From a virus (Duplodnaviria > Caudoviricetes), in IMG/VR virus record IMGVR_UViG_3300036760_000302, positions 1-63,583 of that record: a DNA stretch of 63,583 bases; one strand, 5' to 3'. Positions 3,474-21,238 of the stretch are shown piece by piece. Made by a program: the position numbers and the translations under genes. The notes beneath the pieces are model-generated. The model had not been told where the DNA came from and made no database searches. It worked only from the letters and a program-made list of their open reading frames with translations. Numbering within the stretch: the stretch's first letter is position 1; each line of letters opens with the position of its first letter.

Positions 3474-4421
3474 ATGGCAAAGAAAAAAGCAATTAAACAA
3501 ATCTGCTCCCTCTACGATTTATTAAAAAAGTTCCCTACGGAGAAGGACTGCATCGAATATTTCGAGCAGATAATCTGGTATGGGAAGCCAGTATCTCCAT
3601 TTGATGAGACCTCGAAGGTCTATAAATGCTCTGGCAACAAATATAAGTGCAAAAAGACTGGTAAATATTTCAATATAAAGAACGGTACTATTTTCGAGAA
3701 TAGTAATATCAAACTGCAAAAGTGGCTGATGGCTATTTACCTGATGACCTCCCACAAGAAAGGAATCAGTTCAATACAACTGGCAAGGGATATAGGCGTT
3801 ACTCAGAAATCCAGTTGGTTTATGCTCCATAGACTCCGCTACGCAATGGCTCACAGGGACTTTAAGAAGCCGTTGAGTAACATCGTTGAGTGCGATGAGG
3901 CATATATTGGTGGAAAGGAAAAGAATAGGCATCAGAATAAGAAAGGACGCGGACAAGGTTCATTCGGTAGAGAAGCATTGGATAAGGCAACTGTATTCGG
4001 GGCAGTGGAGCGAGGTGGAAAGGTTCTGGCAGAGAAAATAGTTAATGCTAATAAGGAAAATATCGAACCGATTATCTTCAAAAATATAAAGGAAGGCACA
4101 AAGATATTTACTGATGAATGGTATGGCTACCATGCGCTGAGTAAATCCTACGAACATAAGTCAATCAAACATAGTTTGAAGCAGTATGTAGATGGCGAAG
4201 TTCACACGAATACAATCGAAAATTTCTGGGCGTGCCTAAAGCGTGGATTGTATGGAATCTATCATAAGACCGACAAAGCACACTTGCAATGGTATCTGGA
4301 CGAGTTCGCTTTTCGATACAATACGAGGGACTTGAATGAACTGAAACGATGTGAGTTGTTTATCGGAGCGACTCAAGGGAGATTGAAGTATAGGCAGTTG
4401 ATAAAGAAAAAGTCTAATTAA
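3474..4421 (+). CDS. IS1595-family DDE transposase
   Basis: VECDEAYIGG, IFTDEW, HTNTIENFW, YLDEFAFRYN. Confidence 0.95.
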   Translation: MAKKKAIKQICSLYDLLKKFPTEKDCIEYFEQIIWYGKPVSPFDETSKVYKCSGNKYKCKKTGKYFNIKNGTIFENSNIKLQKWLMAIYLMTSHKKGISSIQLARDIGVTQKSSWFMLHRLRYAMAHRDFKKPLSNIVECDEAYIGGKEKNRHQNKKGRGQGSFGREALDKATVFGAVERGGKVLAEKIVNANKENIEPIIFKNIKEGTKIFTDEWYGYHALSKSYEHKSIKHSLKQYVDGEVHTNTIENFWACLKRGLYGIYHKTDKAHLQWYLDEFAFRYNTRDLNELKRCELFIGATQGRLKYRQLIKKKSN

Positions 4422-4932
4422 ACCCTCTTTCCTTCCTCCATCTCACAATTTGTTCACTTACTTTTTTTATTTTATCAAGTAGCCTTTGGTCATAAATCTC
4501 ATCTAATTTATTGGGAATATCATAACTCCAACTTACATCTTCAATCACAGGATACTCCTCCTTACTAAATCCTAAATCTCGCATTTTATTTTCGTATTTT
4601 TTATCAGCCAATCTATACCAACTACCACTAAGCCATCGTCTTGAACTCCACCATTTATCAGAATTTTTATATTCTTTTTGAGGAACTGGTCTAATGATGT
4701 GTATTGGCATACTAATTGCACCAGAATCCGAATATTCTATATAATTAAGAAAATAATATTTATTTCCTGTTCTTCCAATTAATTTTTTATATTTTTCTAT
4801 CTTATCTTTATCAATATCTCCGCCTTTCTCCAAATAACTATCCTGCTCCATCACATCTGCCGAATGAAAATATCCGCCAGTTATAATTGCTCCGTGATTG
4901 GCGTAATAATCAGCAAAATCTCCTGTTAACAT
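4414..4932 (-). CDS. IS passenger protein, unknown function (start uncertain)
   Basis: 172-aa ORF inside the TIRs; minus-strand TATCTTTG promoter element near 4959..4966. Confidence 0.55.
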   Translation of the reverse strand: MLTGDFADYYANHGAIITGGYFHSADVMEQDSYLEKGGDIDKDKIEKYKKLIGRTGNKYYFLNYIEYSDSGAISMPIHIIRPVPQKEYKNSDKWWSSRRWLSGSWYRLADKKYENKMRDLGFSKEEYPVIEDVSWSYDIPNKLDEIYDQRLLDKIKKVSEQIVRWRKERGFN

Positions 4933-5040
4933 TATTGTATGGATTATACTTTGTGCGACAAAGATAATTAATATTTTAATACGGCAAAATGTTAGTAATT
5001 AATGAAGTTTACTGTTGAATATTTGTACTATTTTCGCACC

Positions 5041-5169
5041 ATGAGTAAAAAACCATCCAAGAAAATCAACTCAAAGAACGCAAAACAGCGTGGAGGAGTT
5101 ATGCAGGAAAAAGAGTTCAATGAAATCATCCAGAGAATTGTTCGGGTCAAACCGAAACAGACTAAATGA
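5041..5169 (+). CDS. Small basic IS-associated protein (42 aa)
   Basis: MSKKPSKKINSKNAKQRGGVMQEKEFNEIIQRIVRVKPKQTK*, next to the right TIR. Confidence 0.5.
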   Translation: MSKKPSKKINSKNAKQRGGVMQEKEFNEIIQRIVRVKPKQTK

Positions 5170-5282
5170 CCTATACACTATCCGTCTTTCAATTTTTATG
5201 TTATTTCAGCAAGTGTAAAATAGTATATAATTACCTTTTTACTGGTTGATTATCAGTGAATTATGAGCTTAGTAGAAAATAA

Positions 5283-5315
5283 TTTATAAACCAAGCAACT
5301 TTTGTTATACATTTG
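5283..5315 (+). promoter_or_regulatory. Bacteroidota sigma70-type promoter of tRNA operon 1
   Basis: TTTA-N21-TACATTTG (-33/-7 elements). Confidence 0.6.
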
Positions 5316-5383
5316 TCGTCTAAAGAGAAACAAACGCTCCGCGAGGAGTAAAACAGAAAATCAACCGAGTAATAAAACAGACA

Positions 5384-5521
5384 ATGCTTTCACTTCAAAA
5401 AAATACAACAACAATGTGGACGATAGCGGGTAAAACCTGTGTGTCAGTCATTCGCTTTAATGAAGCGGGGGACGATACAAGCGGGGCTTTCCACAAAGTT
5501 TTGTATTCTGACGAAGAATAA
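5384..5521 (+). CDS. Leader peptide of tRNA operon 1 (45 aa; alternative start 5414)
   Basis: MLSLQKNTTTMWTIAGKTCVSVIRFNEAGDDTSGAFHKVLYSDEE*; its 3' part overlaps the antiterminator strand. Confidence 0.75.
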   Translation: MLSLQKNTTTMWTIAGKTCVSVIRFNEAGDDTSGAFHKVLYSDEE

Positions 5522-5577
5522 AAATACGAAACTCAAAAGAAGCCCCGCACAAGAAATTGTTCGGGGCTTTTTGTTTT
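5481..5577 (+). terminator. Attenuator 1 (antiterminator 5481..5548; intrinsic terminator 5540..5577)
   Basis: AAGCCCCG-C-ACAA-GAAA-TTGT-T-CGGGGCTT plus U-tract; GCGGGGCTT(5481) pairs with AAGCCCCGC, and GTTTTGTATT with AATACGAAAC. Confidence 0.8.
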
Positions 5578-5579
5578 AT

Positions 5580-6533
5580 ATGGGTTTTAAATACGAGTGT
5601 GAAAAATATGGTTTAAAAATAAGATACATGAAACCGCTTTATACTAAAGAAGAATTTAAAATAGCCGAAGGGGAAGATAAATTACCATTAGAATGTTACT
5701 CCTGCGGAAATACCTTCTTAAAACTAAAGCGAGTGATTCAAAGAACCCTGCGGAATAAAAATGGATATACAGGAAAATTTTGTAGCAAAAAATGTTGTGG
5801 TGCATCAAAGAAAAGAAAATTAATATCAGCAAAGTGCGAAAACGATAAATGCAATAAAGAACACGATGGTTCTTTCGGAAGTGGTAGATTTTGCAGAAGG
5901 GCTTGCGCTAATAGCAGAGTCAAAAGCGAATCAGATAAATTAAAAATATCTGCTGGGGTCAGGAATAGCGAGGCGTTTAAGGTAAGTGTCTTAAAATTAC
6001 CCAAGAAGATTAGGAAGATGTGGCGCGATGGGAAATATAATAGCAGAAGTGAAAAATTGATAAAGGTAGTTAAGTGGAAATGCCCAGTTTGCGATTCTAT
6101 TATAATGTTAAATCCAAGCGTAGCAAGAGAAAGAAAATATTGTAGTGGAAGATGTAGAAATAAAGTGAATAATAAATTTCAGAATGGTAGTAGGTCGTAT
6201 GCCGAAAGATACTTGGAGGAAAAATTAAGCGAGTCGTTTCCGTCATTAAAAATTGAATTTAATAATAGAGAAGTATTGAGTGGAAATAAAGAGTTGGATG
6301 TGTACATACCGTCTTTGAACTTTGCGATAGAATGGAATGGAATTTATCATTACAGGGAAGTAAATAAAGAAAGTTTAGTTAAGGTAAAAAAGAGAGATTT
6401 TGATAAAAAGAAAGAGTGTAAGCGAGGCGGAATATTGCTGTATGTGATAAAAGATTTAACGAGCAGTAAGAAATTTATAAGAGAAGAAACTGATAAAATT
6501 GTTCTTGTTATACGCAGACTAATTCATGGGTGA
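5580..6533 (+). CDS. Putative homing endonuclease (Zn fingers plus PD-(D/E)XK domain)
   Basis: Repeated FCS..C modules; ELDVYIPSLNFAIEWNGIYHY; ATG 5580 preferred. Confidence 0.75.
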   Translation: MGFKYECEKYGLKIRYMKPLYTKEEFKIAEGEDKLPLECYSCGNTFLKLKRVIQRTLRNKNGYTGKFCSKKCCGASKKRKLISAKCENDKCNKEHDGSFGSGRFCRRACANSRVKSESDKLKISAGVRNSEAFKVSVLKLPKKIRKMWRDGKYNSRSEKLIKVVKWKCPVCDSIIMLNPSVARERKYCSGRCRNKVNNKFQNGSRSYAERYLEEKLSESFPSLKIEFNNREVLSGNKELDVYIPSLNFAIEWNGIYHYREVNKESLVKVKKRDFDKKKECKRGGILLYVIKDLTSSKKFIREETDKIVLVIRRLIHG

Positions 6534-6596
6534 GATGGTCGGACTCCAAATCCGATGCCCGAAAGGGATGTGCGGGTTCGACTCCTGCTCTGCGTG
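6512..6596 (+). tRNA. tRNA-Trp(CCA) with long variable arm
   Basis: ACGCAGA/TCTGCGT-G; TCGGA-CTCCAAA-TCCGA; GCGGG-TTCGACT-CCTGC. Confidence 0.8.
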
Positions 6597-6638
6597 CAAG
6601 TAGTAAAATTGTTCTTTGAAAGTAAAATATTGTTTTTT

Positions 6639-6927
6639 TTTGGCAGGACTCCAGAAGTGGGGGTCGCACAGATGAACAACCATTACAACAACGTACAGTT
6701 CCAACGGCACTGTAATGGTGCGGAACAGTTCTCTTGCCGAAGATATTTAAGATGTTTGGTCACGACAAGCAGTTTGACGAACTAACCGTTCCTTCATCGT
6801 CACTGGGGCGGGCTTGTCGTGTGCCGGACAAAAGAATCTACTAAGCAGGTTTGAGATGAAAAAAAAAACAGAGCAAAGAAAATCAGCATCTCTGTAATTT
6901 GCCGTCAACCGGAGAATGTCCTGCTTA
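6639..6927 (+). ncRNA. Three stem-closed putative ncRNAs (6639..6741, 6753..6830, 6842..6927)
   Basis: Closing stems GGCAGGA/TCTTGCC, CACGACAAGC/GCTTGTCGTG, TAAGCAGG/CCTGCTTA. Confidence 0.45.
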
Positions 6928-6935
6928 AAATATTT

Positions 6936-7008
<73 letters not shown>

Positions 7009-7096
7009 CTTCTGCTAAACCATAATGCAGATGGATGAAGATGATAAATCGTAACTGAATTGTACAATAGGTTACGGCTAAAACGGATTCGTCTCA

Positions 7097-7161
7097 GGCG
7101 ATGTTCATTAGGGGGCAAGTCGCGAACTTGTCAAGGGGTGAAAGTCCTCTCATCGCCACCA
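7097..7161 (+). ncRNA. D-armless tRNA-like RNA ending in ACCA
   Basis: GGCGATG/CATCGCC-ACCA; GCAAG-TCGCGAA-CTTGT; AGGGG-TGAAAGT-CCTCT. Confidence 0.55.
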
Positions 7162-7162
7162 T

Positions 7163-7235
7163 GCCTGTGTAGCTCAGTTGGTAGAGCTCCTGACTTGTAA
7201 TCAGGGGGTCGGGGGTTCAAGTCCCTCCGCAGGCT
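7163..7235 (+). tRNA. tRNA-Thr(TGT)
   Basis: Canonical cloverleaf; loop CTTGTAA. Confidence 0.95.
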
Positions 7236-7259
7236 CGACTGGTTCTTTAAAAGTAAGAT

Positions 7260-7332
7260 TGCGATGTAACTCAGGTGGTAGAGTACAGGATTCATAAACC
7301 TGTTGTCGCGGGTTCGAGTCCCGCCATCGCAA
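7260..7332 (+). tRNA. tRNA-Met(CAT)
   Basis: TGCGATG/CATCGCA; loop TTCATAA. Confidence 0.85.
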
Positions 7333-7348
7333 CCGGATAAAAATATAT

Positions 7349-7395
7349 TGCGGGGTGGACTGGCGTTCGGTTGCCAGCTTGGTCTCATAAACCAA
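7349..7395 (+). pseudogene. Orphan 5' half of a tRNA-Met(CAT), interrupted by an HNH cassette
   Basis: TGCGGGG, D-arm CTGGC/GCCAG, TTGGT-CTCATAA-ACCAA; no T-arm follows. Confidence 0.75.
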
Positions 7396-7435
7396 AAATT
7401 GTAAGATGAGACCATTTTTGTATCTTTGAAATAAA

Positions 7436-7834
7436 ATGCCATATAAAGACAAGGATATTCAGAGAGAAAAGAATAGGGGGTATCAAAAGAAATATTATAG
7501 TAATAATAAAAAATACTATCAAAAAAAATCAAGCGACAGAAAAAAGGTTCTCGCTGTCGAATTAGAAAAAATAAAAAAGAAATTAAAATGCGAAAAATGT
7601 GGAGAGGGTCATGTGGCGACTCTGGACTTTCATCACAAAAATGCCAGTGAAAAAGAAAAAGGGGTCGGTGCGTCAATATCTAATGGATGGTCAATTAATA
7701 GAATCAAAAAAGAAATAAAAAAATGTATAGTCTTGTGCTCTAATTGCCATAGAAAATTACACTACAAGGAAAGGAAATTGAGAAAAAAAAATATTGCGGG
7801 ACAGTTGCGATGGAGTGCAATAGGAGTCTCATAA
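7436..7834 (+). CDS. HNH endonuclease
   Basis: CEKCG..LDFHH..CIVLCSNCHRKLH; TATCTTTG promoter element at 7421..7428. Confidence 0.9.
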   Translation: MPYKDKDIQREKNRGYQKKYYSNNKKYYQKKSSDRKKVLAVELEKIKKKLKCEKCGEGHVATLDFHHKNASEKEKGVGASISNGWSINRIKKEIKKCIVLCSNCHRKLHYKERKLRKKNIAGQLRWSAIGVS

Positions 7835-7870
7835 ACTCTCTGGTCGGCAGTTCGAGTCTGCCTCCCGCTA
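7795..7870 (+). tRNA. tRNA-Met(CAT), initiator-like
   Basis: TGCGGGA/TCCCGCT with 1:72 mismatch; GGAGT-CTCATAA-ACTCT. Confidence 0.8.
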
Positions 7871-7887
7871 CGAAAGTAAAATAACAT

Positions 7888-7960
7888 TTGCGCGTAGCTC
7901 ATTCGGTAGAGCGCTACTCTGATAAAGTAGAGGTAGAAAGTTCAAATCTTTCCGTGCAAA
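7888..7960 (+). tRNA. tRNA-Ile(GAT)
   Basis: CTACT-CTGATAA-AGTAG; full cloverleaf. Confidence 0.9.
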
Positions 7961-7968
7961 CAAAATTT

Positions 7969-8046
7969 GGACAAGTAGCTCATGGTAGGTAGAGCATCGG
8001 TCTGTTAAACCGAGTGTGGCAGGTTCGACCCCTGCCTTGTCCGCCA
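7969..8046 (+). tRNA. tRNA-Asn(GTT), encoded CCA
   Basis: GGACAAG/CTTGTCC-GCCA; loop CTGTTAA. Confidence 0.92.
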
Positions 8047-8057
8047 GAATAAAACAT

Positions 8058-8131
8058 GGTGATGCAGAATAATGGCGCATTTTACCTCCCTGTCACGGAG
8101 GGGATTACGGGTTCGAGTCCCGTCATCACCG
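8058..8131 (+). tRNA. tRNA-Asp(GTC)
   Basis: GGTGATG/CATCACC-G; loop CTGTCAC. Confidence 0.9.
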
Positions 8132-8211
8132 CAAGTAAATAAAAATAAAAAAAAGTAAAATGAAAAACAAAATTACAGTATCCGAGCCAGCCGAACCTTA
8201 TGAGGAAACTT

Positions 8212-8282
8212 GTCAGGTTAGTTTAGTGGCAGAACGCTGGGCTTTCATCCCAGAGGCAGGAGTTCGATTCTCCTACTTGATA
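8212..8282 (+). tRNA. tRNA-Glu(TTC)
   Basis: CTGGG-CTTTCAT-CCCAG; T-arm AGGAG/CTCCT. Confidence 0.88.
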
Positions 8283-8296
8283 CTTAATAAATATAA

Positions 8297-8368
8297 GCGA
8301 GGTATAGCTTAATCGGCAAAGCATCAGTTTTCCAAACTGAGGATGCGGTTCAAATCCGATACTTCGCT
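8297..8368 (+). tRNA. tRNA-Gly(TCC), irregular acceptor/T junction
   Basis: TCAGT-TTTCCAA-ACTGA; GCGAGGTA/TACTTCGC. Confidence 0.8.
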
Positions 8369-8422
8369 CACATGGCGAGTTTAAAGGGAATCCACAGTCG
8401 GGAGACTGCCTCTCGCCTCCAT

Positions 8423-8495
8423 GCGGAAGTAGCTCAGGTGGTAGAGCGTATCGTTGCCAACGATAAGGTCGTGAGTTCAAATCTCATTTTCCGCT
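8423..8495 (+). tRNA. tRNA-Gly(GCC)
   Basis: Canonical cloverleaf; loop TTGCCAA. Confidence 0.93.
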
Positions 8496-8570
8496 CGAAA
8501 AAGGCTCTTTGAAGTATTTGGCTTAATTATTGCATGGTATATGTGACTCGAACCATGAAATCATTAAGGT

Positions 8571-9800
8571 ATGAAAGAAAGTATATTGAGATTACATTTT
8601 GAGGGCAAAAGCTATAATGAAATAAGGGCAATTCTTGGTTGTTCTAAAGGAACGATATCTTATCACTGCGGAGTAGAGCAGAAAGATAAAAGCAGAAAAA
8701 GAAAAAGAAAAAACAGGAAGGCGCGTAGAGGAATTAATAACAGAAGAAAGAAGATTGAGGTAAAAGAGGAGATATTAATATTACGCTCAGAAGGGAAAAC
8801 ATATCCTGAAATTGAAAAAATATTAAAATGCTCTCAAGGAAGAATAGGGTATTGGATTAAAAAAGAGAAGGGAATAACCCCATCTGATATATGCGAAAAC
8901 TGCAACAGAAAACATGATGGAAATTATGGCTCTGGTAGATTTTGTTCTCATAAATGCGCTCATGTAAGAAAAGGAGGTGGAAACGGGAATGCCATTAAAT
9001 GCAGAAAAAATAAAATAGAAAAAGAATTAACGAGACTAAATACAATTCATATATGTGAAAATTGTAACAATCAACATAGCGGAAATTACGGCAGTGGAAG
9101 ATTTTGCTCTTCTAAATGTGCAAGAGGATTTTCTACAAAAGAAAACAGAAAAAATATTAATGATGCCGTATCCGAAGCAATGACTGGTAGAAAGCATTCA
9201 GAAGAAAGAAAATTAAAAATATCTCCATTATTTGTATATTATTGGAAAGGTAAAAAGAAAAATGACGAAAACAGGAAAACTAAAATAAAACGCGGGAGGG
9301 GATATAAAAGGAAATTAAATCCAAAATCTTCAAAGGATTTAGCCGGATTAATAAAATTAGATAAAAAGTGCAGATATTGTAATGAAGCGGGGAGTGTTCT
9401 TTATCATGGTAGTGTATGTAAAAAATGCAAAAGTGAATTTTATATATTATATAGAGAAGCGTGTCGTTTTAAGTTCAATGTTTATCACTATCCAGAATAC
9501 TTTGATTTATCTTTAATAGAAAAACATAAATGGTATAAAGCAAAAAATAGGGGAGATAATTTAGGGGGAGTTAGCCGAGACCACCTATATTCTGTAAGTG
9601 ACGGATTTAAAAACAAGATTAATCCTGAAATCATTAGTCATCCGGCAAACTGCGAACTATTAATACATACAGACAATCAAAAGAAGCATAGCAAGAGCAA
9701 AATAACATTAGGTGAATTGATGAAGAGGATGAAAATATGGTCGGATAGCCAAACGGTTAGGCGCACCTCTGCAAAAGGTGATAAATCAGTTCAACTCTGA
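8571..9800 (+). CDS. Putative homing endonuclease (HTH repeats, Zn fingers, NUMOD3-like, HNH-like C-terminus)
   Basis: GKSYNEI..CSKGTISYH; CENCN..GSGRFCS twice; SRDHLYS..HPANCEL..N..K. Confidence 0.75.
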   Translation: MKESILRLHFEGKSYNEIRAILGCSKGTISYHCGVEQKDKSRKRKRKNRKARRGINNRRKKIEVKEEILILRSEGKTYPEIEKILKCSQGRIGYWIKKEKGITPSDICENCNRKHDGNYGSGRFCSHKCAHVRKGGGNGNAIKCRKNKIEKELTRLNTIHICENCNNQHSGNYGSGRFCSSKCARGFSTKENRKNINDAVSEAMTGRKHSEERKLKISPLFVYYWKGKKKNDENRKTKIKRGRGYKRKLNPKSSKDLAGLIKLDKKCRYCNEAGSVLYHGSVCKKCKSEFYILYREACRFKFNVYHYPEYFDLSLIEKHKWYKAKNRGDNLGGVSRDHLYSVSDGFKNKINPEIISHPANCELLIHTDNQKKHSKSKITLGELMKRMKIWSDSQTVRRTSAKGDKSVQL

Positions 9801-9809
9801 TTCCGACCT
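9739..9809 (+). tRNA. tRNA-Cys(GCA)
   Basis: GGTCGGA/TCCGACC-T; CACCT-CTGCAAA-AGGTG. Confidence 0.92.
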
Positions 9810-9884
9810 CTGAATGAAAAAGCGCACGACAGCCAGTAATGGTATGTTCAAAGTTGCAAATAAGAACGTGGAGAAATCCGGTCG

Positions 9885-9954
9885 CGGTAGTTGGTGTAGT
9901 GGCGCACGCTGAGATGATGTCTCAGAGGAATGGGTTCGACCCCCTAACTATCAA
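9885..9954 (+). tRNA. Atypical tRNA, anticodon GAT (Ile-like)
   Basis: CTGAG-ATGATGT-CTCAG; T-stem imperfect. Confidence 0.6.
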
Positions 9955-9956
9955 TC

Positions 9957-10030
9957 GGGTCTTTAGCTCAGTTGGTTAGAGCATCGGTCTCATAAACCGC
10001 AGGTCACAGGTTCGAGCCCTGTAAGACCCA
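9957..10030 (+). tRNA. tRNA(CAT), probably Ile2 (lysidine type)
   Basis: GGGTCTT/AAGACCC-A and Ile-type D-arm; loop CTCATAA. Confidence 0.8.
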
Positions 10031-10032
10031 CG

Positions 10033-10833
10033 ATGGCAAATAAAGAAAATGAAATGGATGAGAATAAACATATATGTAATCTGACTTGGTGCGAACAGCA
10101 CAGAGAATGTTTTTATAGAAATAAAAATCAATCTGCTGTTTCATATACCGGAGAAATATTTTGTTACCATAAAAATTGGACGGAATCATTACATAAAGAG
10201 CAAGAAATAAAAACCCCAGTGATAAAGCGAGTGGAGGATAGTGATGATAGCTGGAATTTCGGACAAGCAGTTCGGGCTAAGGTGAGTCAGCCTCACTGCG
10301 AAAATCCGAGTTGTAATTCGATTGCAGATTTGAAATATAATGATAAAGTAAATCTATGCTACAAATGCTTGGATTCGCTCCGGTCGCATCGGTCGAATTA
10401 TGAACTGGCGATATATTTTGGAAGTAAAATAAAAGTGCTAAAACTGTTAAAAGTAATTCAGGAGCTTGAAGCTCCGGTTAAAGAAAAGAAAACTATCGTG
10501 GTAAGATGCTCAAACATATACTGCTGTTCGACTGAGCAAGTCACTCAGCACCATCTGATTCCTAATCCGTACAGGAAAGGAGTTATCGGTGGTGGTAAGA
10601 AGATTCCTTTGTGCTGGGGTTGCCACGTTCGGGTTCATGGTCTTAGGTTTAATCATGAGCTTGCGTTCAATTATAATACGAAGTCAGCCGTGATTAAACT
10701 TTTGGAAGAAGATACGCTGTTCAGGCTTTACAAGATGAAGGTAATTACAAATCCGCCAGCTCTTCCAAAGCGCAAGATGACGGTAGTGGCACTAAATTCA
10801 GTGCCGAGTAGAATGATAGCAGTTGCCGGATAA
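10033..10833 (+). CDS. HNH-like Zn-binding protein
   Basis: QHHLIP..IPLCWGCHVRVH. Confidence 0.6.
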   Translation: MANKENEMDENKHICNLTWCEQHRECFYRNKNQSAVSYTGEIFCYHKNWTESLHKEQEIKTPVIKRVEDSDDSWNFGQAVRAKVSQPHCENPSCNSIADLKYNDKVNLCYKCLDSLRSHRSNYELAIYFGSKIKVLKLLKVIQELEAPVKEKKTIVVRCSNIYCCSTEQVTQHHLIPNPYRKGVIGGGKKIPLCWGCHVRVHGLRFNHELAFNYNTKSAVIKLLEEDTLFRLYKMKVITNPPALPKRKMTVVALNSVPSRMIAVAG

Positions 10834-10853
10834 AATCGTCCGGCAACTATAAT

Positions 10854-10927
10854 GGGGAATTAGCTCAGTTGCTTAGAGCGCCCGCCTTGCAAGCGGGAGG
10901 TCATCGGTTGAAGTCCGATATTCTCCA
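10854..10927 (+). tRNA. tRNA-Ala(TGC)
   Basis: GGGGAAT/ATTCTCC-A with G3:U70; loop CTTGCAA. Confidence 0.93.
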
Positions 10928-10994
10928 CAATAAAAAAAACGAACCAACGCTTTGTGGTTTAGTGAAAGTTCGTATATTTGTATAAAAAAAAGCC

Positions 10995-11546
10995 ATGAAG
11001 AGTAAAAGGATATTTAAAAACGGATACTATGTTGTACATAAGCCAGAGCATCCGAGAGCGTTTAACTCGAAAGGTAATAATTTGAGAGGGTATGTGTACG
11101 AGCACATAGTAGTTATGGAGGAAGATTTGGGGAGAATGATAAGGGATGATGAAGAAGTCCATCATCTTGATTTCAATAAGAGAAATAATTCTCCAGAAAA
11201 TTTAATAGTGTTGCCGAGTCCTCATCATAAGAGATTGCATCATTGGTTAATTGCTAATAAAATAAAGCCGATTCAGAAAGAGGTGTTAAGGTGTGAGGTT
11301 TGTGGCAAGCCATTGAGGTTGACTATGCAGAGTAAATATTGTAGCGAGATTTGTCGCAGGGAAGGTAAGAAGTCGAGAATAGATGAGGTGGGAATTGAGC
11401 AGATAAAAAAAGATTTGGTTGAGCTAAGGAGTCTCGTTAAGGTCGGAGCTAAATACGGATTGTCTGATAATGCTATAAAAAAATGGATGAAATTAAGATT
11501 TGGATACACGAATAAAGAAATTAGGAAAATGAAAAAGGGGGCATAA
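10995..11546 (+). CDS. HNH endonuclease
   Basis: YVYEHIVVME..VHHLDFNKRNNSPENL; TATATTTG promoter element at 10973..10980. Confidence 0.9.
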   Translation: MKSKRIFKNGYYVVHKPEHPRAFNSKGNNLRGYVYEHIVVMEEDLGRMIRDDEEVHHLDFNKRNNSPENLIVLPSPHHKRLHHWLIANKIKPIQKEVLRCEVCGKPLRLTMQSKYCSEICRREGKKSRIDEVGIEQIKKDLVELRSLVKVGAKYGLSDNAIKKWMKLRFGYTNKEIRKMKKGA

Positions 11547-11611
11547 CTCAGTTGGTTCAGAGTGCAATCCTTACAAGATTGAAGTCACAGGTTCGACCCC
11601 TGTTGCCCCCA
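11537..11611 (+). tRNA. tRNA-Val(TAC)
   Basis: GGGGGCA/TGCCCCC-A; loop CTTACAA. Confidence 0.93.
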
Positions 11612-11767
11612 CGATATGTAAAGAAAAGTGGAATTTTCTTTACATGAAAAACGGATATGTGAAGTTTCTTTACATGACAATCGGTAATATATTGCTGATT
11701 TGGATAAAAACGGAATAATCTTGTAGTAAAAAATACTAAATCGGCAATATATTACTGATTCTGGAAA

Positions 11768-11989
11768 ATGGAACTAAAATTGAAAACGGACATAGGGGAG
11801 CTCACGGCAGTATTACTGAGCGACACCATTGACGGTGGCAGTAAAACGGTCTGGACAGCTTGGATAAAGGAATATGCCGGAGCGGTAACTCAAGCTGACA
11901 GCATACAAGGGGCAATGGATAAGTTGCCGGAGATTTTGGACTTACTATTGAAAGTAGAAGCAGAACACTTAATAAACGGTAAAGATTAA
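11768..11989 (+). CDS. HicB-like antitoxin domain protein (orphan)
   Basis: WTAWIKEYAGAVTQADSIQGAMDKLPEIL resembles the HicB N-terminal fold. Confidence 0.6.
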   Translation: MELKLKTDIGELTAVLLSDTIDGGSKTVWTAWIKEYAGAVTQADSIQGAMDKLPEILDLLLKVEAEHLINGKD

Positions 11990-12052
11990 AAAAAACGACA
12001 ATGGAAATCATCGAAGTAGATATTGAAGGTAAGAAACGGGGCGATAAAATTC

Positions 12053-12125
12053 GACCTCGTAACTCAACTGGTAGAGTACCGCTCTTTTAAAGCGGGAGTT
12101 GTGCGTTCAAATCGCATCGGGGTCA
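12053..12125 (+). tRNA. tRNA-Lys(TTT)
   Basis: CCGCT-CTTTTAA-AGCGG. Confidence 0.92.
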
Positions 12126-12135
12126 CAAACTATTA

Positions 12136-12209
12136 GGGTTTGTAGCTCAACTGCTTAGAGCATCGCACTCTTAATGCGAGGGTTGTGGGTTGGAATCCCA
12201 CCAGACCCA
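12136..12209 (+). tRNA. tRNA-Lys(CTT)
   Basis: TCGCA-CTCTTAA-TGCGA. Confidence 0.92.
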
Positions 12210-12282
12210 CTAATAAATAAAATCAATAATTGAGTTGAACCTATGCTTATTAAAATTAGTATATTTACTTAAAATATACTAA

Positions 12283-12942
12283 ATGGGAAAGCCAAGAAAT
12301 ATTAAAGATGAAATAATAAGACTGTATTCGTCTGGAAAATTTTATAATGAAATAGCGAAAGAACTAAAGTGCTCTAAGGGTACGGTTAGTTATCACTGTG
12401 CTGAAATAAGAATAGAAAAGGGGCTCGATAAGAACGGGCAATGGAATAATGCTGACCCTGAAAAATACATAAAGGCGTGGCAGTTATGTAGGCAAAAGAT
12501 TGTAAATCATTATGTGAAAAAATTACTATCAGAGCCATATAAAAATTTAAGTTTTGAAAGGCTTAGGAAGAGAGTGATTTATGAGCAGAAGGAAAAGTGT
12601 AATCGCTGTAAGTTGTCGGAATGGCTCGGCATGAAGATAATGCTTGAATTAGAGCATAAAGACGGAGATAGGCATAATAATAAACGAAAAAATGTGGAAG
12701 GATTATGTCCAAATTGTCATAGTCAAACAAGTACATGGAGAGGGAAGAATAAGAGGAATAAAAGAGATTTAGTATCTGACGAGAAATTGATAATTTCATT
12801 AGTTAAGCATGGTTTTAATTTTAGAAGAGCTCTAATCGAAGTAGGTCTTGCTCCTAAAGGTGGTAACTATAAGAGATGCCATAAAATAAGTAGAGCACTA
12901 AGGGGTGGTCAGAATAAATCATCGAGCACTAAAAGTTTTTAA
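12283..12942 (+). CDS. HNH endonuclease with N-terminal HTH
   Basis: LELEHKDGDRHNNKRKNVEGLCPNCHSQT. Confidence 0.9.
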   Translation: MGKPRNIKDEIIRLYSSGKFYNEIAKELKCSKGTVSYHCAEIRIEKGLDKNGQWNNADPEKYIKAWQLCRQKIVNHYVKKLLSEPYKNLSFERLRKRVIYEQKEKCNRCKLSEWLGMKIMLELEHKDGDRHNNKRKNVEGLCPNCHSQTSTWRGKNKRNKRDLVSDEKLIISLVKHGFNFRRALIEVGLAPKGGNYKRCHKISRALRGGQNKSSSTKSF

Positions 12943-12983
12943 CAATCACTGAACGTAAAATAATTTGAAATAGATTTGCAGAA

Positions 12984-13190
12984 ATGTTTGAACTCATGCG
13001 CCATATCAGCTTACCTTTCAATAGGGACAGGAAAATCATTAGTTGTCAATACTGTGGCGGGATGGTTTCTTTCAGGGATAGCCATGCTAACCACGTTCTG
13101 TTCGCCTGCGACAAATGCAAGTCGCCAAAAGAAAAAAATGTAGAACCTAAAAAAGTTTATAACTTTGCCGATAATGATTTCGTATTCTAA
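12984..13190 (+). CDS. Small Zn-ribbon protein
   Basis: CQYC..CDKC. Confidence 0.45.
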   Translation: MFELMRHISLPFNRDRKIISCQYCGGMVSFRDSHANHVLFACDKCKSPKEKNVEPKKVYNFADNDFVF

Positions 13191-13308
13191 CCATATCATC
13201 AGCCTCAACGCTTCCTCTTTCCGTGCCCGCATCAGGCGCAGACGGTAATTCCGTCACATATTCCCTTTTGCCTTTCAACTCTTATTTATTTACAGCCTTT
13301 TTAAATCT

Positions 13309-13384
13309 GGGCTTGTAGTTCAACGGATAGAATAGAAGATTTCTAACCTTCTGATGGCGAGTTCGATTCTCCCCAAGCCTACCA
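13309..13384 (+). tRNA. tRNA-Arg(TCT), encoded CCA
   Basis: Loop TTTCTAA; cloverleaf. Confidence 0.9.
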
Positions 13385-13392
13385 GTGTATTT

Positions 13393-13465
13393 GCCCGCAT
13401 AGTTTAATAGGACAGAACCTCTCATTCCTAACGAGAAAATCTCAGTTCGATTCTGGGTGTGGGTG
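13393..13465 (+). tRNA. tRNA-Arg(CCT)
   Basis: Loop TTCCTAA; cloverleaf. Confidence 0.88.
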
Positions 13466-13470
13466 CAAAT

Positions 13471-13543
13471 GGGTTCGTAGTTTAACAGGATAGAATATAT
13501 CACTACGGATGATATGATGGGGATTCGACTTCCCCCGAACCCA
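13471..13543 (+). tRNA. tRNA-Arg(ACG)
   Basis: TATCA-CTACGGA-TGATA. Confidence 0.9.
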
Positions 13544-13547
13544 CAAC

Positions 13548-13620
13548 GCCTTTGTAGTTTAATTGGATAGAATATCAGATTTCGGCTCTGATGGTGGAGA
13601 TTCGAGTTCTCCCGAAGGCA
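13548..13620 (+). tRNA. tRNA-Arg(TCG)
   Basis: TCAGA-TTTCGGC-TCTGA. Confidence 0.9.
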
Positions 13621-13621
13621 C

Positions 13622-13660
13622 AAAAAAAAATCCCGAAACAAATTAATGCTTCGGGATTTA
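13622..13660. terminator. Terminator between tRNA operon 1 and the convergent gene
   Basis: AAATCCCGAA..TTCGGGATTT with a flanking A-tract. Confidence 0.65.
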
Positions 13661-13675
13661 TAATTATTATTGTTT

Positions 13676-14431
13676 TTATTTCAGTATTTGAAAACTTCCT
13701 TTATAAGAAACACGAATAATACCTCCACCGCTACCGATAGCATTACGCTGGACGGTGCAAATAGGATACTTTTGTTTGTCTTTATCATTTTTTCCGCACG
13801 GAGGATTTACGCTTGACGTGCAATCGTCACATCCGAATGGGAATACACCTATTTGCCCGCTATTATTACGGATACCTTTGTTCCAGATAGAATCTACCTT
13901 CGGGTACATAGAACTCGCATTCCAATCTTCTCCTCCTAAAAATTTACCGGAGATTATACAGTTAGCTCCATCTACGCAAGATATTTCAACTGTCTCTTGT
14001 GGATTTGGATACGGAGCATTGGATATATTCACGATAAACTCAAAGATGTTTATGCCGAATGGGTATCGAGGGATAGCGCAAGTTAGAGCGACTGTATCGA
14101 AAGAAAATTCACCATTGTATCCCATGCTGTCTGGCGCATAGTCAATGGTGGAGTCATGTGGAGCGAGAGTGAAGTATCCTTTGAGTGGAGCGACTGAATC
14201 AGTAATGAACGGAACTTGACCTATGTTTTGCAGGCAACCATTTGTTGCACCGAGAGATAACCATACGACTACCGCCTTGTCGGTTTCGTTTACAACTCTT
14301 ATTCTGGTAGTGGTATCAACGGCTGGCTCGGACTGCTCGTTAATTACGACAGTTTCTTTTACATTAATAGTGTTGTCGCATCCGAAGAGTGCGATGCAGA
14401 GTGCGAATAATAATAGGATTCTGTTTTTCAT
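13676..14431 (-). CDS. Cys-rich lipoprotein
   Basis: Signal peptide II with lipobox LFGC. Confidence 0.7.
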   Translation of the reverse strand: MKNRILLLFALCIALFGCDNTINVKETVVINEQSEPAVDTTTRIRVVNETDKAVVVWLSLGATNGCLQNIGQVPFITDSVAPLKGYFTLAPHDSTIDYAPDSMGYNGEFSFDTVALTCAIPRYPFGINIFEFIVNISNAPYPNPQETVEISCVDGANCIISGKFLGGEDWNASSMYPKVDSIWNKGIRNNSGQIGVFPFGCDDCTSSVNPPCGKNDKDKQKYPICTVQRNAIGSGGGIIRVSYKGSFQILK

Positions 14432-14468
14432 TTTGATTGGTTTGTTTTATTTGGGTTTATGGGGTTAG

Positions 14469-14538: not shown

Positions 14539-14636
14539 ATTTCCGGCAAAGATAATCAATATTTGGATTAACAAATTTTAACATTGCCGTATTAAAGAAT
14601 ATTCCTATATTTACTTAACGAACAACAAATACTACC

Positions 14637-17103: not shown

Positions 17104-17109
17104 AAATAA

Positions 17110-17142
17110 TTTGCTCGCGTATTAAATTAATTCCTATATTTG
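17110..17142 (+). promoter_or_regulatory. Bacteroidota sigma70-type promoter of tRNA operon 2
   Basis: TTTG-N21-TATATTTG, consensus match. Confidence 0.8.
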
Positions 17143-17179: not shown

Positions 17180-17272
17180 ATGAAAAATTTATCACTATAT
17201 AGTCTATCGTTGCTCCAACAGCATCCGCAGGGATACTCAGGGCTTCATTGCTATATGGTGATTGAAAAATAA
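17180..17272 (+). CDS. Leader peptide of tRNA operon 2 (30 aa)
   Basis: MKNLSLYSLSLLQQHPQGYSGLHCYMVIEK*. Confidence 0.78.
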   Translation: MKNLSLYSLSLLQQHPQGYSGLHCYMVIEK

Positions 17273-17331
17273 AACTTCCAACACCAAGCAGAGAACCCTG
17301 AGCAAGAAATTGTTTGGGGTTTTTTGTTTTT
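17236..17331 (+). terminator. Attenuator 2 (antiterminator 17236..17302; terminator 17294..17331)
   Basis: AACCCTGAGCAA-GAAA-TTGTTTGGGGTT plus U-tract; CTCAGGG/CCCTGAG, TGCT/AGCA, TGGTG/CACCA. Confidence 0.8.
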
Positions 17332-17349: not shown

Positions 17350-17423
17350 CGGGGTGTAGCGCAGTCCGGTAGCGCATCTGTTTTGGGAACAGAGGGTCGT
17401 AGGTTCAAATCCTGCCACTCCGA
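17350..17423 (+). tRNA. tRNA-Pro(TGG)
   Basis: CGGGGTG/CACTCCG-A; loop TTTGGGA. Confidence 0.95.
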
Positions 17424-17430
17424 CAAATAT

Positions 17431-17505
17431 GGTGTTGTTAGTTCAGTCGGTTAGAACGCTTGATTGTGGTTCAAGAGGTCGCCAGTTCAAATCTGGTACA
17501 ACACC
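17431..17505 (+). tRNA. tRNA-His(GTG)
   Basis: G-1:C73; loop TTGTGGT. Confidence 0.93.
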
Positions 17506-17525
17506 CAGCTAAAATAAATGACAAA

Positions 17526-17723
17526 ATGAAAATAGATATAAGTTATATCAGCACTAAGTATTACGACAGGACAAACATTGTTCAATGGATGTTCATGTTT
17601 AAAAGATACACGGCTGTAAGGGGATTTATCATGAGGGTATTTGGAATTTATTTTAATGTGAGAGAAAATAATGCGACAGAAAAATTGATAAAATTATTTA
17701 TAGAATCACGGAAGTGTGGGTGA
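17526..17723 (+). CDS. Small hypothetical protein
   Basis: ATG at 17526; stop lies inside tRNA-Ser. Confidence 0.5.
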   Translation: MKIDISYISTKYYDRTNIVQWMFMFKRYTAVRGFIMRVFGIYFNVRENNATEKLIKLFIESRKCG

Positions 17724-17800
17724 GTGGCTGAAACCACTCGTTTGCTAAACGAGCAATCGGCTGAATAGTCGGTTCGAGAGTTCAAATCTCTCCGCTTCCG
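17710..17800 (+). tRNA. tRNA-Ser(GCT)
   Basis: Loop TTGCTAA; long variable arm. Confidence 0.93.
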
Positions 17801-17814
17801 CAAATAAAAAAAAG

Positions 17815-18045
17815 ATGAACATAGTTCTTAAAATAAAAGTAGAAGGTTACACCGCTATAATGGTGGAGGATAAAGAGGAAGGTTTGTTTACGATGTCCTG
17901 CTTGGAAAAAGGTGGAGCAATCATAACCGGAAATACGAAGGAGGAATGTCTGGAGAAATTCAAGAAGGCGATGGGGCTGGCGGTCGCGGTAGCAAAGCTG
18001 GCTGAGTTTGGAAGAAGTAGAACATTTAACTACAAAAGAAAATGA
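17815..18045 (+). CDS. HicB-like domain protein
   Basis: EDKEEGLFTMSCLEKGGAIITGNTKEECLEKF. Confidence 0.5.
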   Translation: MNIVLKIKVEGYTAIMVEDKEEGLFTMSCLEKGGAIITGNTKEECLEKFKKAMGLAVAVAKLAEFGRSRTFNYKRK

Positions 18046-18245
18046 ACACGGAAATTGAGGACATGATAATTGATAAATGGGCTGAGGATGTAATCAGCTC
18101 GGACTCGGAGCGAGTTATTGAATACAAGAATGGTAATGAAGGATTACTCGGATACTTTGTCGGAATGACGATGAAAAAATCGAGAGGTCAGTTGGATGTG
18201 AGTAAATTAAATAAGGCGATAAAAGAAAAACTCAATAAAATATAA
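18042..18245 (+). CDS. Stand-alone GatB/YqeY C-terminal domain protein
   Basis: EYKNGNEGLLGYFVGMTMKKSRGQLD. Confidence 0.75.
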   Translation: MNTEIEDMIIDKWAEDVISSDSERVIEYKNGNEGLLGYFVGMTMKKSRGQLDVSKLNKAIKEKLNKI

Positions 18246-18307
18246 AAACTGAAAATGGAAGCACCAGAAAAAATAGACGAGGACTCGTTCTCCGGAATAA
18301 CACATAC

Positions 18308-18402
18308 GGAGGCGTGGCAGAGTCAGCTTTATCGCACCAGTCTTGAAAACTGGCAATCACTTTAAGCTAAGTGGTTCGGGGGTTGAAATCCCTCCGCCTC
18401 CG
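18308..18402 (+). tRNA. tRNA-Ser(TGA)
   Basis: CCAGT-CTTGAAA-ACTGG; long variable arm. Confidence 0.92.
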
Positions 18403-18504
18403 CAAATAAATAAAAACAGGAAGTAAATAAATAAAACAAAATGAAAGACTATTATTATACATAGCGGGGATTGATTGGCAAGTCCACCTTCTCCGCAACG
18501 CAAT

Positions 18505-18588
18505 GGGAATGCGCCAGAGTTGGAGAGCTGGGTTTGTCTGTAAAACAAATGGCTTCGGTCTAAGTGAGTTCGATTCTCACAATTCCCA
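18505..18588 (+). tRNA. tRNA-Tyr(GTA)
   Basis: TTTGT-CTGTAAA-ACAAA. Confidence 0.88.
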
Positions 18589-18606
18589 CAGATGAAAATA
18601 AAATAT

Positions 18607-18690
18607 GCGAGCGTGGCGGAATCGGCATACGCACTGGTCTAAGAAGCCAGCGTCCGGAAGGAATTAAGAGTTCAACTCTCTTCGCTCGCA
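18607..18690 (+). tRNA. tRNA-Leu(AAG)
   Basis: CTGGT-CTAAGAA-GCCAG. Confidence 0.9.
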
Positions 18691-18694
18691 CAAA

Positions 18695-18778
18695 CCGCAA
18701 GTGGTGGAATCGGCAGACACATACGCCTCAGAAGCGTATGCTCGGAAGGGCGTAAGAGTTCAAGTCTCTTCTTGCGGA
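18695..18778 (+). tRNA. tRNA-Leu(CAG)
   Basis: TACGC-CTCAGAA-GCGTA. Confidence 0.9.
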
Positions 18779-18792
18779 CGAAAAATATAAAT

Positions 18793-18876
18793 GCGAGTAT
18801 GGCGGAACTGGCAGACGCGATGGACTCAAAACCCATTGGAGTGAAATCCGTAAGAGTTCGATTCTCTTTATTCGCA
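18793..18876 (+). tRNA. tRNA-Leu(CAA)
   Basis: Loop CTCAAAA. Confidence 0.9.
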
Positions 18877-18929
18877 CGATAAAAAAACTAAAATGAAAAC
18901 AACTGAACGATTATGTGCGAGGGAAATAT

Positions 18930-19015
18930 CCTCGCATGGCGAAATTGGTAAACGCGCTATCCTTAAAAGGTAGTGGGCAGTAATGCCCGTGTCGGTTCGA
19001 CTCCGATTGCGAGGA
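18930..19015 (+). tRNA. tRNA-Leu(TAA)
   Basis: CTATC-CTTAAAA-GGTAG. Confidence 0.9.
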
Positions 19016-19143
19016 CAGTACAAAGTAATACGATGTAATACAAAATAATACAATGAACAATTTAAACCAGCAACAGCAAGAATAAACAACGAAGGGGAGA
19101 ACCATCGTAAGGAGGGGTCTTGCCCTTCCGGTGATGAATATAT

Positions 19144-19214
19144 TCTCCTCTCGTCTAACGGTAGGACATCTGATTTTGGCTCAGAGAATTGCAGTTCAAA
19201 TCTGTGGGGGAGAA
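19144..19214 (+). tRNA. tRNA-Gln(TTG)
   Basis: TCTGA-TTTTGGC-TCAGA. Confidence 0.88.
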
Positions 19215-19251
19215 CAATAGAAAAATAATTATCTTTGCGGATATTTCTTAT

Positions 19252-19324
19252 TGACCTATGGTGTAATTGGCAACACGACTGATTTTGGTTCAGTAGAGTC
19301 TAAGTTCGAGCCTTAGTGGGTCAA
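19252..19324 (+). tRNA. tRNA-Gln(TTG)
   Basis: ACTGA-TTTTGGT-TCAGT. Confidence 0.9.
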
Positions 19325-19400
19325 CAAGCTGGATGCTGTTAATAAGTTTTGTAAGATTGTACTTGACAGATGTAATTACATTATTATCTTTGTGTCATAT

Positions 19401-20535: not shown

Positions 20536-20575
20536 AAAATGCTCCAGCGATATATTTCGTTGGGGCATTTTTTTT
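20536..20575 (+). terminator. Intrinsic terminator after the ncRNA array
   Basis: AATGCTCCAGCGA..TCGTTGGGGCATT plus T-tract. Confidence 0.8.
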
Positions 20576-20687
20576 GTTTCAACACCTATCCTTTTCATTG
20601 TTGAAAAGTCCGAACCGGAGTGATTTATTCATTCCGTATATTTACATCCAATCAATTAATCAACAACAACAAAACAATTTAATTACA

Positions 20688-20891
20688 ATGAAAACAGGTA
20701 CAGTAAAATTTTACAATGAGTCGAAAGGATTCGGATTCATCAAGTCTGACGATGGCGGAAAAGAAGTATTCGTTCACGCCACAGGAATCGCTCAGGGCAC
20801 TCAGCTTAGAGAGAACGACAAAGTTACTTTCGAGGAAAGAGACGGAAAGAAAGGCGTTAATGCCGTGAATGTCGAACTCTGCGAAAATTAA
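20688..20891 (+). CDS. cspA: Cold-shock domain protein
   Basis: [25 protein letters not shown]. Confidence 0.93.
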
Positions 20892-20986: not shown

Positions 20987-21238
20987 ATGGCTACTATGAC
21001 AAAAGATGAAATTACAGAAAAGGTAACTAAGGTTATTGTGGATAAACTCGGAGTTAATTCAAATGAAATTATTCCTTCTGCAAATTTTGTGAATGACCTA
21101 CGAGCAGATTCCCTTGATAACGTAGAGCTTATAATGGAATTTGAAAATGAGTTTAATTTTAAGATTCCAGACGAGGAAGCCGAAAAGTTGACGACAGTCG
21201 GAGAAGTGATTGAGTATATCATAAAAAACGTAAAATAA
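20987..21238 (+). CDS. acpP: Acyl carrier protein
   Basis: DLRADSLDNVELIMEFE (DSL phosphopantetheine site). Confidence 0.93.
   Translation: MATMTKDEITEKVTKVIVDKLGVNSNEIIPSANFVNDLRADSLDNVELIMEFENEFNFKIPDEEAEKLTTVGEVIEYIIKNVK

Follow-up and report, generated by a model that had tools for sequence, protein, structure and literature searches.

Leader reading frames matched to downstream tRNA genes: probable transcription attenuators in a phage and its relatives

The stretch of DNA analysed here (the window) is the whole of the IMG/VR virus record IMGVR_UViG_3300036760_000302 (Duplodnaviria; Caudoviricetes), which is 63,583 bases long and estimated to represent ~35% of the phage genome. It carries 33 transfer RNA (tRNA) genes, all on the + strand and arranged in two groups. 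Upstream of each group lies a short leader open reading frame (ORF), rich in codons for the amino acids carried by the tRNAs of that group and followed by an intrinsic terminator. We consider it probable that transcription of each tRNA cluster, in this phage as in its relatives, passes through a ribosome-mediated attenuator. Four features of the DNA carry this reading: the anatomy of the leader regions, their conservation, the co-variation between leader composition and tRNA content, and the complementarity of a strand inside the leader ORF to the 5′ half of the terminator.

Putative attenuator 1

The tRNA cluster 1 (6512..13621, + strand) comprises 22 tRNA genes of 14 amino-acid types (Trp, Phe, Thr, Met, Ile, Asn, Asp, Glu, Gly, Cys, Ala, Val, Lys and Arg; hereafter set 1), with HNH-type ORFs found between them at 8571-9800, 10995-11546 and 12283-12942; CAT-anticodon tRNAs number three. 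A first-pass annotation, made from the sequence alone, had proposed that a leader upstream of this cluster samples its 14 amino acids within 20 codons. The 20 residues encoded from the ATG at 5414, in frame with ORF 5384..5521 (+ strand), do contain all 14 types. This is the only such case among the 50,483 stop-free 20-residue segments of the record read in six frames, 13 types being reached in 35 segments. Two further details of that annotation were reproduced: both ATA (5423) and ATT (5450) are used for Ile, and 26 of the 27 residues at positions 6-32, counted from 5384, belong to set 1. Residues 2-5 counted from the same codon contain none (0/4). The putative sensing zone (5417..5470, + strand), in which a stalled ribosome would not cover the antiterminator strand, comprises 12 of the 14 types; Met is provided by the ATG at 5414 itself and Asp comes next, at 5471.

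The probable initiation codon was revised. Translation had been assigned to start at 5414, which gives a leader of 35 codons, while homology with the orthologous leader of a related contig (G006, see below) favours 5384 and a leader of 45 codons, because each of the two sequences has an ATG exactly 30 nt upstream of a conserved ATG-TGG.

The antiterminator strand lies at 5481, where it had been predicted. Nucleotides 5481-5489 are fully complementary, over 9 bp, to 5540-5548, which forms the 5′ side of the terminator hairpin, and the pairing extends to 10 bp with one G-U pair (5481..5490, + strand, with 5539-5548; duplex −21.0 kcal/mol). This helix is found in the minimum-energy fold of 5324-5569, where it encloses a second helix of ~10 bp. 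The "9+10 bp" antiterminator of the first-pass annotation is correct for its 9-bp helix, and the "10" probably designates the second, enclosed one. None of 500 dinucleotide shuffles of ORF 1 paired equally well with the terminator strand and none of 300 shuffles of the upstream RNA depressed the probability of terminator 1 as far. Terminator 1 (5540..5577, + strand) is formed by the hairpin 5540-5569 (8 bp, a 1x1 mismatch, 4 bp and a four-base loop; −17.8/−18.2 kcal/mol) and the T tract 5570-5577, and has a paralog at 17294-17331. The promoter-like region of the unit (5275..5315, + strand) features a TAnnTTTG-type −7 box at 5308-5315 and an upstream A/T block common with attenuator 2, as identified by a motif scan and by alignment with attenuator 2 and G006.

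Putative attenuator 2, a paralog in the same record

A search of the record with the leader 1 region retrieved a 91% identical terminator copy at 17303-17334. It belongs to a second cassette (17135-17331) which has the same anatomy and lies upstream of tRNA cluster 2 (17350..19325, + strand). This cluster has 11 tRNA genes (Pro, His, two Ser, Tyr, four Leu and two Gln), the first starting 28 nt past the hairpin. The −7 box of attenuator 2 (17135..17142, + strand; motif scan) is of the TAnnTTTG type, with a TTTG 17-23 nt upstream. The leader ORF 2 (17180..17272, + strand) has 30 codons and its start aligns with those of the orthologous leaders in the related contigs G006 and G010. A mini-ORF of five codons (17166-17183), in a different frame, overlaps this start through an ATGA; the G006 and G010 orthologs, whose 5′ regions are much shorter, lack it. 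Residues 4-23 of leader 2 are the single top segment of the record for the six amino-acid types of cluster 2 (18/20 residues), followed by six segments with 17/20, three of which are overlaps of leader 2 itself.

The antiterminator 5′ strand 2 (17235..17247, + strand) pairs with 17293-17303 through 7 bp, a mismatch and 3 bp (duplex −15.5 kcal/mol; 3 of 500 shuffles as good), and terminator 2 (17294..17331, + strand) consists of the hairpin 17294-17321 followed by a T tract to 17331. The two cassettes align in their 3′ halves, including stop codons, loop and T tract. Reading of the aligned helices identified compensatory changes, each altered on both sides, in two pairs of the antiterminator helix and one pair of the terminator, as well as one antiterminator position that is mismatched in copy 2. 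The antiterminator strand is common to both paralogs and is read in different frames in ORF 1 and ORF 2, a situation that, as far as the sequences can tell, points to selection acting on the RNA strand rather than on the peptide.

Leader/cluster pairs in related phage contigs

Metagenomes contain 76 homologs (38-86% identity) of a 274-residue protein whose gene lies immediately 5′ of leader 2. The window protein and 48 of these homologs, 49 of the 77 proteins listed, were aligned, and this alignment led to 51 metagenome loci and 12 viral loci. None of these 63 loci has a tRNA array 3′ of the homolog, a single Arg tRNA being present in three, and the arrays of the relatives were therefore sought elsewhere in their records. 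They were found in four of the first five records searched and in G011: tRNA matches number 19 in G006, 53 in G007, 54 in G008, 6 in G010 and 32 in G011, while G009 and G012 gave no tRNA matches. The related contigs are up to ~233 kb long. A megablast of the window against phage records matched in a tRNA-Asn only, a tblastn search of the phage collection with the helicase and a PHROG-1362 protein found no close cultured relative, and scans of viral contigs with single proteins (the 274-residue, the 172-residue and the helicase proteins) returned no usable relative.

A single rule was applied to all contigs: tRNAs called by ARAGORN, a hairpin of −9 kcal/mol or lower abutting a T run, and an ATG-initiated ORF of 12-70 codons ending at most 70 nt before the hairpin. 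It yielded 13 leader/cluster pairs, including the two of the window, and then three in G011, where one leader requires, in our reading, a GTG start in another frame. The 14 pairs outside the window (five contigs), together with the paralogous attenuator 2, support the proposal of the first-pass annotation that a leader-peptide attenuator samples the amino acids of the tRNAs encoded downstream. The G008a cluster, which starts near a contig end, was left out of the leader search. Isolated tRNAs without a leader under the rule are found in G007b (4033, 6829 and 7550), G007c, G007d, G008c and G008d.

The composition of the leaders follows the content of the clusters. Leaders rich in Cys, Val and Leu precede Cys-Val-Leu clusters (G007, G008 and G011). 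In the relatives, Phe/Asp/Glu/Ala-rich leaders precede Phe-Glu-Asp-Ala clusters, Thr/Tyr/Gln/Lys/Pro/Gly-rich leaders precede Pro-Gln-Tyr-Thr-Gly-Lys clusters, and leaders rich in Ile, Asn, His, Met, Ser, Trp and Arg precede clusters of exactly those types. The case of Phe in G006 amounts to a natural experiment. The Phe tRNA of this contig is found in a third, separate cluster (Pro-Phe-Gln), which has a leader of its own where Gln, Phe and Pro are abundant (10/19 residues; background 0.11). The G006 ortholog of leader 1 lacks Phe; it shows 12 of its 13 types in the first 20 residues and the remaining one at residue 21.

Statistical support for the correspondence

Enrichment was assessed over residues 2-20 of each leader with the window proteome as background. 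The first 13 leaders are all enriched in the set of their own cluster (binomial p 1.8e-2 to 1.9e-7) and the same holds for 16/16 leaders when G011 is included, keeping in mind that orthologous pairs across genomes are not independent and represent about seven distinct leader types. The tRNA amino-acid types of the cluster are present within the first 20 leader residues in 76 of 79 cases for the 13 pairs, and in 16 of 17 in G011. The true assignment of leaders to clusters within genomes ranks 1 of 1,728, and it was reached by none of 100,000 global permutations. The G011 contig was analysed after the rule had been fixed: its leaders have 19/19, 12/19 and 11/19 residues in set, the three clusters match (3/3), and the assignment ranks 1 of 6. 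Decoy ORFs of 20-50 amino acids from the same segments reached the score of the leader in 14 of 2,466 comparisons, 12 of the 16 leaders beating every decoy.

These data bear on one alternative, namely that the leaders are ordinary small genes with their own terminators, their match to the tRNAs being due to chance or a by-product of low complexity. Neither window leader has a family match (no PHROG match was found for leader ORFs 1 and 2), as might be the case for such genes, and leader 2 is of low complexity. The rank of both window leaders (1 of 50,483 segments), the permutation and decoy controls and the 3/3 result in G011 already contradict this explanation. In our reading, moreover, orthologous leaders conserve their composition but not the order of their residues, and the two paralogs of the window translate the common RNA strand in different frames. 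We regard it as barely credible.

The correspondence depends on position and reaches, weakly, the level of codons. In-set residues amount to 178/234 before the antiterminator strand versus 100/217 after it (Fisher p 6e-11). Using simple wobble rules, the tRNAs of each cluster can decode 203 of the 219 in-set codons, versus 188.2 expected from the codon usage of the window, which serves as proxy for that of the relatives. Codon counts in the leaders correlate with the copy number of the tRNAs (Spearman 0.44, 96 pairs).

Antiterminators and geometry

A hairpin with a T tract was found between leader ORF and tRNA genes in 16/16 cases under the common rule. The stop codon is located 18-32 nt before the hairpin in 16/16 leaders and the first tRNA 7-44 nt past it in 11/16, an ORF intervening in the rest. 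The strand complementary to the terminator 5′ half lies in codons 17-27 of the leader ORF. In 11 of the 16 leaders its duplex was equalled by at most 18 of 500 dinucleotide shuffles, and in one more by 36 of 500; the Fisher combined p for the first 13 leaders is 4e-10. The antiterminator strands vary between leaders yet stay complementary to their terminators, which constitutes covariation across paralogs and orthologs.

The effect of a ribosome on these structures was modelled by masking a footprint of 28 nt for each A-site position and computing equilibrium pairing probabilities for an RNA ending at the hairpin. For leader 1 (RNA 5324-5569) the probability of the antiterminator is 0.65-0.94 with the A-site at 5417-5468, and that of the terminator is 0.85-0.96 from 5471 to the stop codon. 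For leader 2 (RNA 17152-17321) the antiterminator has a probability of at least 0.95 with the A-site at 17183-17222 and of 0.62 at 17225, and the terminator at least 0.97 at 17228-17264, the switch falling between 17225 and 17228. In these models, the stall zone predicted to favour readthrough coincides with the tRNA-matching codons in both window leaders. The result depends on the amount of 5′ context, the picture for leader 1 being less clean when less is included.

Proposed mechanism and its possible trigger

The following sequence of events would account for these features. The transcript would start at a promoter ~30-75 nt upstream of a leader ORF of 23-45 codons, the first 13-20 of which are those read by the tRNAs encoded downstream. 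When a charged cognate tRNA is short, decoding would be slow and the ribosome would stall upstream of the antiterminator strand. The free strand could then capture the terminator 5′ half as it emerges, so that no terminator would form and the polymerase would enter the tRNA genes. With prompt decoding, the ribosome would cover the antiterminator strand or sit at the stop codon (in the antiterminator loop, 18-32 nt before the hairpin), the terminator would form and transcription would end at the T tract. Leader translation, stalling, the order of folding, stalling-dependent readthrough and the physiological trigger are the steps that we infer. There would be one input per tRNA type, and shortage of any one type would suffice, as in the multi-input OR gate that the first-pass annotation envisaged for leader 1.

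Such a circuit would provide negative feedback on decoding capacity, since its output is the very tRNAs by which the sensing codons are decoded. The leaders are tailored cluster by cluster, and for this reason we favour tRNA shortage over amino-acid shortage as the signal. A shortage of tRNA could come from loss of host tRNA during infection or from tRNA-cleaving defences.

The same device might respond instead to amino-acid starvation or to a general slowdown of translation, the clusters being switched on as a stress or late-infection programme. At a hungry codon a ribosome cannot distinguish lack of the amino acid from lack of the tRNA, as is established for classical attenuators, and leader 1, with 14 types mostly represented by one or two codons each, would be best suited to a broad slowdown. 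Extra tRNA, however, gives no relief from amino-acid starvation, and a starvation trigger offers no reason for a match between leader and cluster. That match is specific to each cluster within genomes (rank 1 of 1,728), follows the moved Phe tRNA and extends weakly to codon choice. We find a starvation or slowdown trigger rather unlikely.

A broader proposal built on tRNA shortage is tentative, and we put less than even confidence in it. According to this proposal, a clade of large environmental phages would carry a programmable sensor of decoding capacity in which each cluster is gated by a leader that is rewritten as tRNA genes move, the phage supplying exactly the tRNAs that the cell lacks. 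Host anticodon-nuclease defences, or host shut-off, may deplete tRNA and so provide the trigger, in which case the system would amount to a self-regulating counter-defence.

Several observations weigh against attenuation as described above. Using short 5′ context at equilibrium, the terminator dominates in 10 of 13 leaders wherever the ribosome is placed, and no switch is seen; the antiterminator must therefore win kinetically, as it does in classical attenuators. In the leader 2 model, the antiterminator re-forms when the ribosome is on the last sense codon or on the stop. Four of the 16 leaders (G006-3, G007-2, G008-3 and G008-2) have antiterminators indistinguishable from shuffles, and in-set codons still account for 46% after the zone, where a stall should favour termination. 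Initiation at 5384 adds four codons outside set 1 (Leu, Ser, Leu and Gln) ahead of the set-1 codons of leader 1. Most amino acids of this leader are represented by one or two codons only, so that its sensitivity to a single shortage is uncertain. The cluster limits (up to the next leader or to a gap longer than 3 kb) are a rule of our own. Inside cluster 1 there is a hairpin with a T run at 7380-7414 as well as promoter-like boxes at 7421, 10973 and 13160, and because of them some of the 22 tRNAs may escape the control of attenuator 1. Evidence from RNA libraries amounts to one low-depth contig (5409-5578), which is silent on transcription, ends and strand.

Some of these points would fit another explanation, in which the correspondence is real and control is exerted through Rho access, tRNA-precursor processing or transcript stability, the hairpin being a constant partial terminator or a processing site. 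The four leaders without a significant antiterminator and the ten terminator-dominated models speak for it. Control of this kind would not account for the complementary strand present at the same place of the ORF in 12 of the 16 leaders, differing between them yet complementary, nor for the location of in-set codons upstream of that strand and the conserved spacing between stop codon and hairpin. We therefore consider it improbable and retain ribosome-mediated attenuation.

An endonuclease gene behind terminator 1

An endonuclease gene was correctly placed by the first-pass annotation between the attenuator and the first tRNA. This ORF (5580..6533, + strand) has HNH/homing-endonuclease matches (PHROG 559, 3339 and 9084; best E 7e-17), starts two bases past the T tract of terminator 1 and overlaps with its end the tRNA at 6512. 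It would come under the control of attenuator 1. Contigs from two other sequencing runs, namely the low-depth RNA-library contig mentioned above and one DNA contig, match the window to 5578 and then diverge from it, a break that fits an endonuclease gene inserted in a strain-specific manner right behind the terminator. The runs provided contigs only, which carry no information on ends, strand or termination, and the small word shares are uninformative on habitat. In G006 an endonuclease is also found right behind attenuator 1 (segment ~4866-5682). It has only weak local similarity to the one of the window, which suggests, at the level of sequence, repeated insertion of endonucleases at this spot.

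Other features of the window and of related contigs

TAnnTTTG boxes precede several window genes (motif scan). This motif, which we take to be the Bacteroidota promoter consensus, leads us to assign the phage provisionally to a Bacteroidota host; it is not over-represented in the window (54 found versus ~69 expected). At 7380-7428, in cluster 1, the hairpin and T run stand directly before a TAnnTTTG box followed by a 132-codon ORF (7436..7834), and this segment may be an internal terminator and promoter that split the cluster.

The Trp(cca) tRNA of cluster 1 (6512-6597) is 86 nt long and has a long variable arm, a 6-bp anticodon stem and a weak D arm. Its match to the Rfam tRNA-Sec model is sub-threshold (36.1 bits; threshold 47). 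The G006 counterpart (segment 7225-7310) has the same length of 86 nt, compared with 72-74 nt for the forms in G007 and G011. The tRNA of the window could be Sec-like, or unusual in some other way, and read UGG. The G007 and G008 arrays (L089, L093 and L095) include CTA-anticodon tRNAs of amber-suppressor type (ARAGORN label Pyl), one of which lies within a cluster preceded by a leader; in some genes of these phages TAG may be a sense codon.

A scan with the terminator pattern returned 11 viral loci (L004-L014; contigs up to 104 kb) with one tRNA match per record and no leader. They have an identical loop and T tract, and their hairpin stands at the end of an unrelated, conserved non-coding region 260 nt or more in length. 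A search with a tRNA-Pro fragment retrieved eight loci in other phages, with no leader within the 1.5 kb viewed. The window itself has a non-coding segment, 15664-16258, with a promoter-like box at 15690 and a strong terminator at 16215-16258. Its Rfam matches are sub-threshold (permuted transfer-messenger RNA (tmRNA), 40.9 bits for a threshold of 47; tmRNA, 21 bits) and ARAGORN made no tmRNA call there; it may code for a phage-encoded tmRNA-like RNA. No DNA-level similarity was found between this segment and the non-coding stretch of L008, L009, L013 and L014. Beyond tRNA cluster 2, ORF 20574..20891 reads as cold-shock-protein-like, and upstream of it the Rfam cspA thermoregulator model scores below its threshold (35.5 bits versus 78; region 20530-21238); ORF 20987..21238, 3′ of the cluster, reads as acyl-carrier-protein-like; both labels come from reading the translations only.

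Comparison with known attenuators

Enterobacterial attenuators can be single-input (trp, his, leu and pheA) or multivalent, as in ilvGMEDA (Ile, Leu and Val) and thr (Thr and Ile). The first-pass annotation had contrasted leader 1 with classical attenuators that use runs of one codon. This contrast holds only in part, since leaders sampling several amino acids have precedents in ilv and thr, and the phage design is better described as the extreme of a known one. The elements of the phage share with the ilv and thr type a short ORF rich in regulatory codons, an intrinsic terminator, an antiterminator that uses the terminator 5′ strand, and an outcome that would be decided by ribosome position. 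They differ in that they would regulate tRNAs and not enzymes, in being borne by phages, as several tailored copies per genome, and in sampling up to 14 types, mostly once or twice, whereas ilv/thr-type leaders use runs of one to three types. No Rfam leader family matched at or above its gathering score, the best being Thr_leader (RF00506) at 5497-5575 (26.8 bits versus 55), and no other leader family was listed at E up to 1.

In the Escherichia coli pheST attenuator, a leader with Phe codons controls phenylalanyl-tRNA synthetase. It is likewise a case of leader-peptide attenuation of a component of the decoding machinery, with feedback on the supply of charged tRNA; its output is the synthetase for one amino acid, in contrast to the phage cassettes, where it would be the tRNA set itself and concern many amino acids. 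In T-box riboswitches the RNA itself binds uncharged tRNA, no translation being involved, and the genes controlled are those for synthetases, transporters and biosynthesis. T-boxes resemble the phage cassettes by a terminator/antiterminator control that reports tRNA status per codon or anticodon, while in the latter a translated ORF would be the sensor; no T-box covariance-model match was found in 4000-21000 at E up to 1 (Rfam). Attenuators of the pyrBI type also combine a leader ORF with a terminator. Their leader ORF runs through the terminator and the outcome is set by how closely the ribosome follows the polymerase, unlike the phage leaders, in which the stop codon is located 18-32 nt upstream of the hairpin in 16/16 cases.

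The titles and abstract openings that we consulted, in which subscription journals are largely uncovered, contain no description of leader peptides or attenuators before tRNA gene clusters, so that an earlier description is possible. The best-supported reading of the phage cassettes is leader-peptide attenuation with a new output, tRNA genes, conserved in a clade of large environmental phages. Arrays of tRNA genes are common in phages; the sequences described here argue for control driven by demand, the ribosome probing the codons and the phage responding with the tRNAs that match. Attenuation would be extended from enzymes and synthetases to tRNA genes, and a single leader would integrate up to 14 inputs. 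Sensor and output appear to co-evolve, the moved Phe tRNA being a natural example. For annotation, the leaders provide a rule to define tRNA transcription units and the tRNAs that a phage treats as one group. The question of whether phage tRNAs answer host tRNA depletion becomes testable, and in engineering the cassettes might find use as compact sensors that report decoding capacity with codon specificity.

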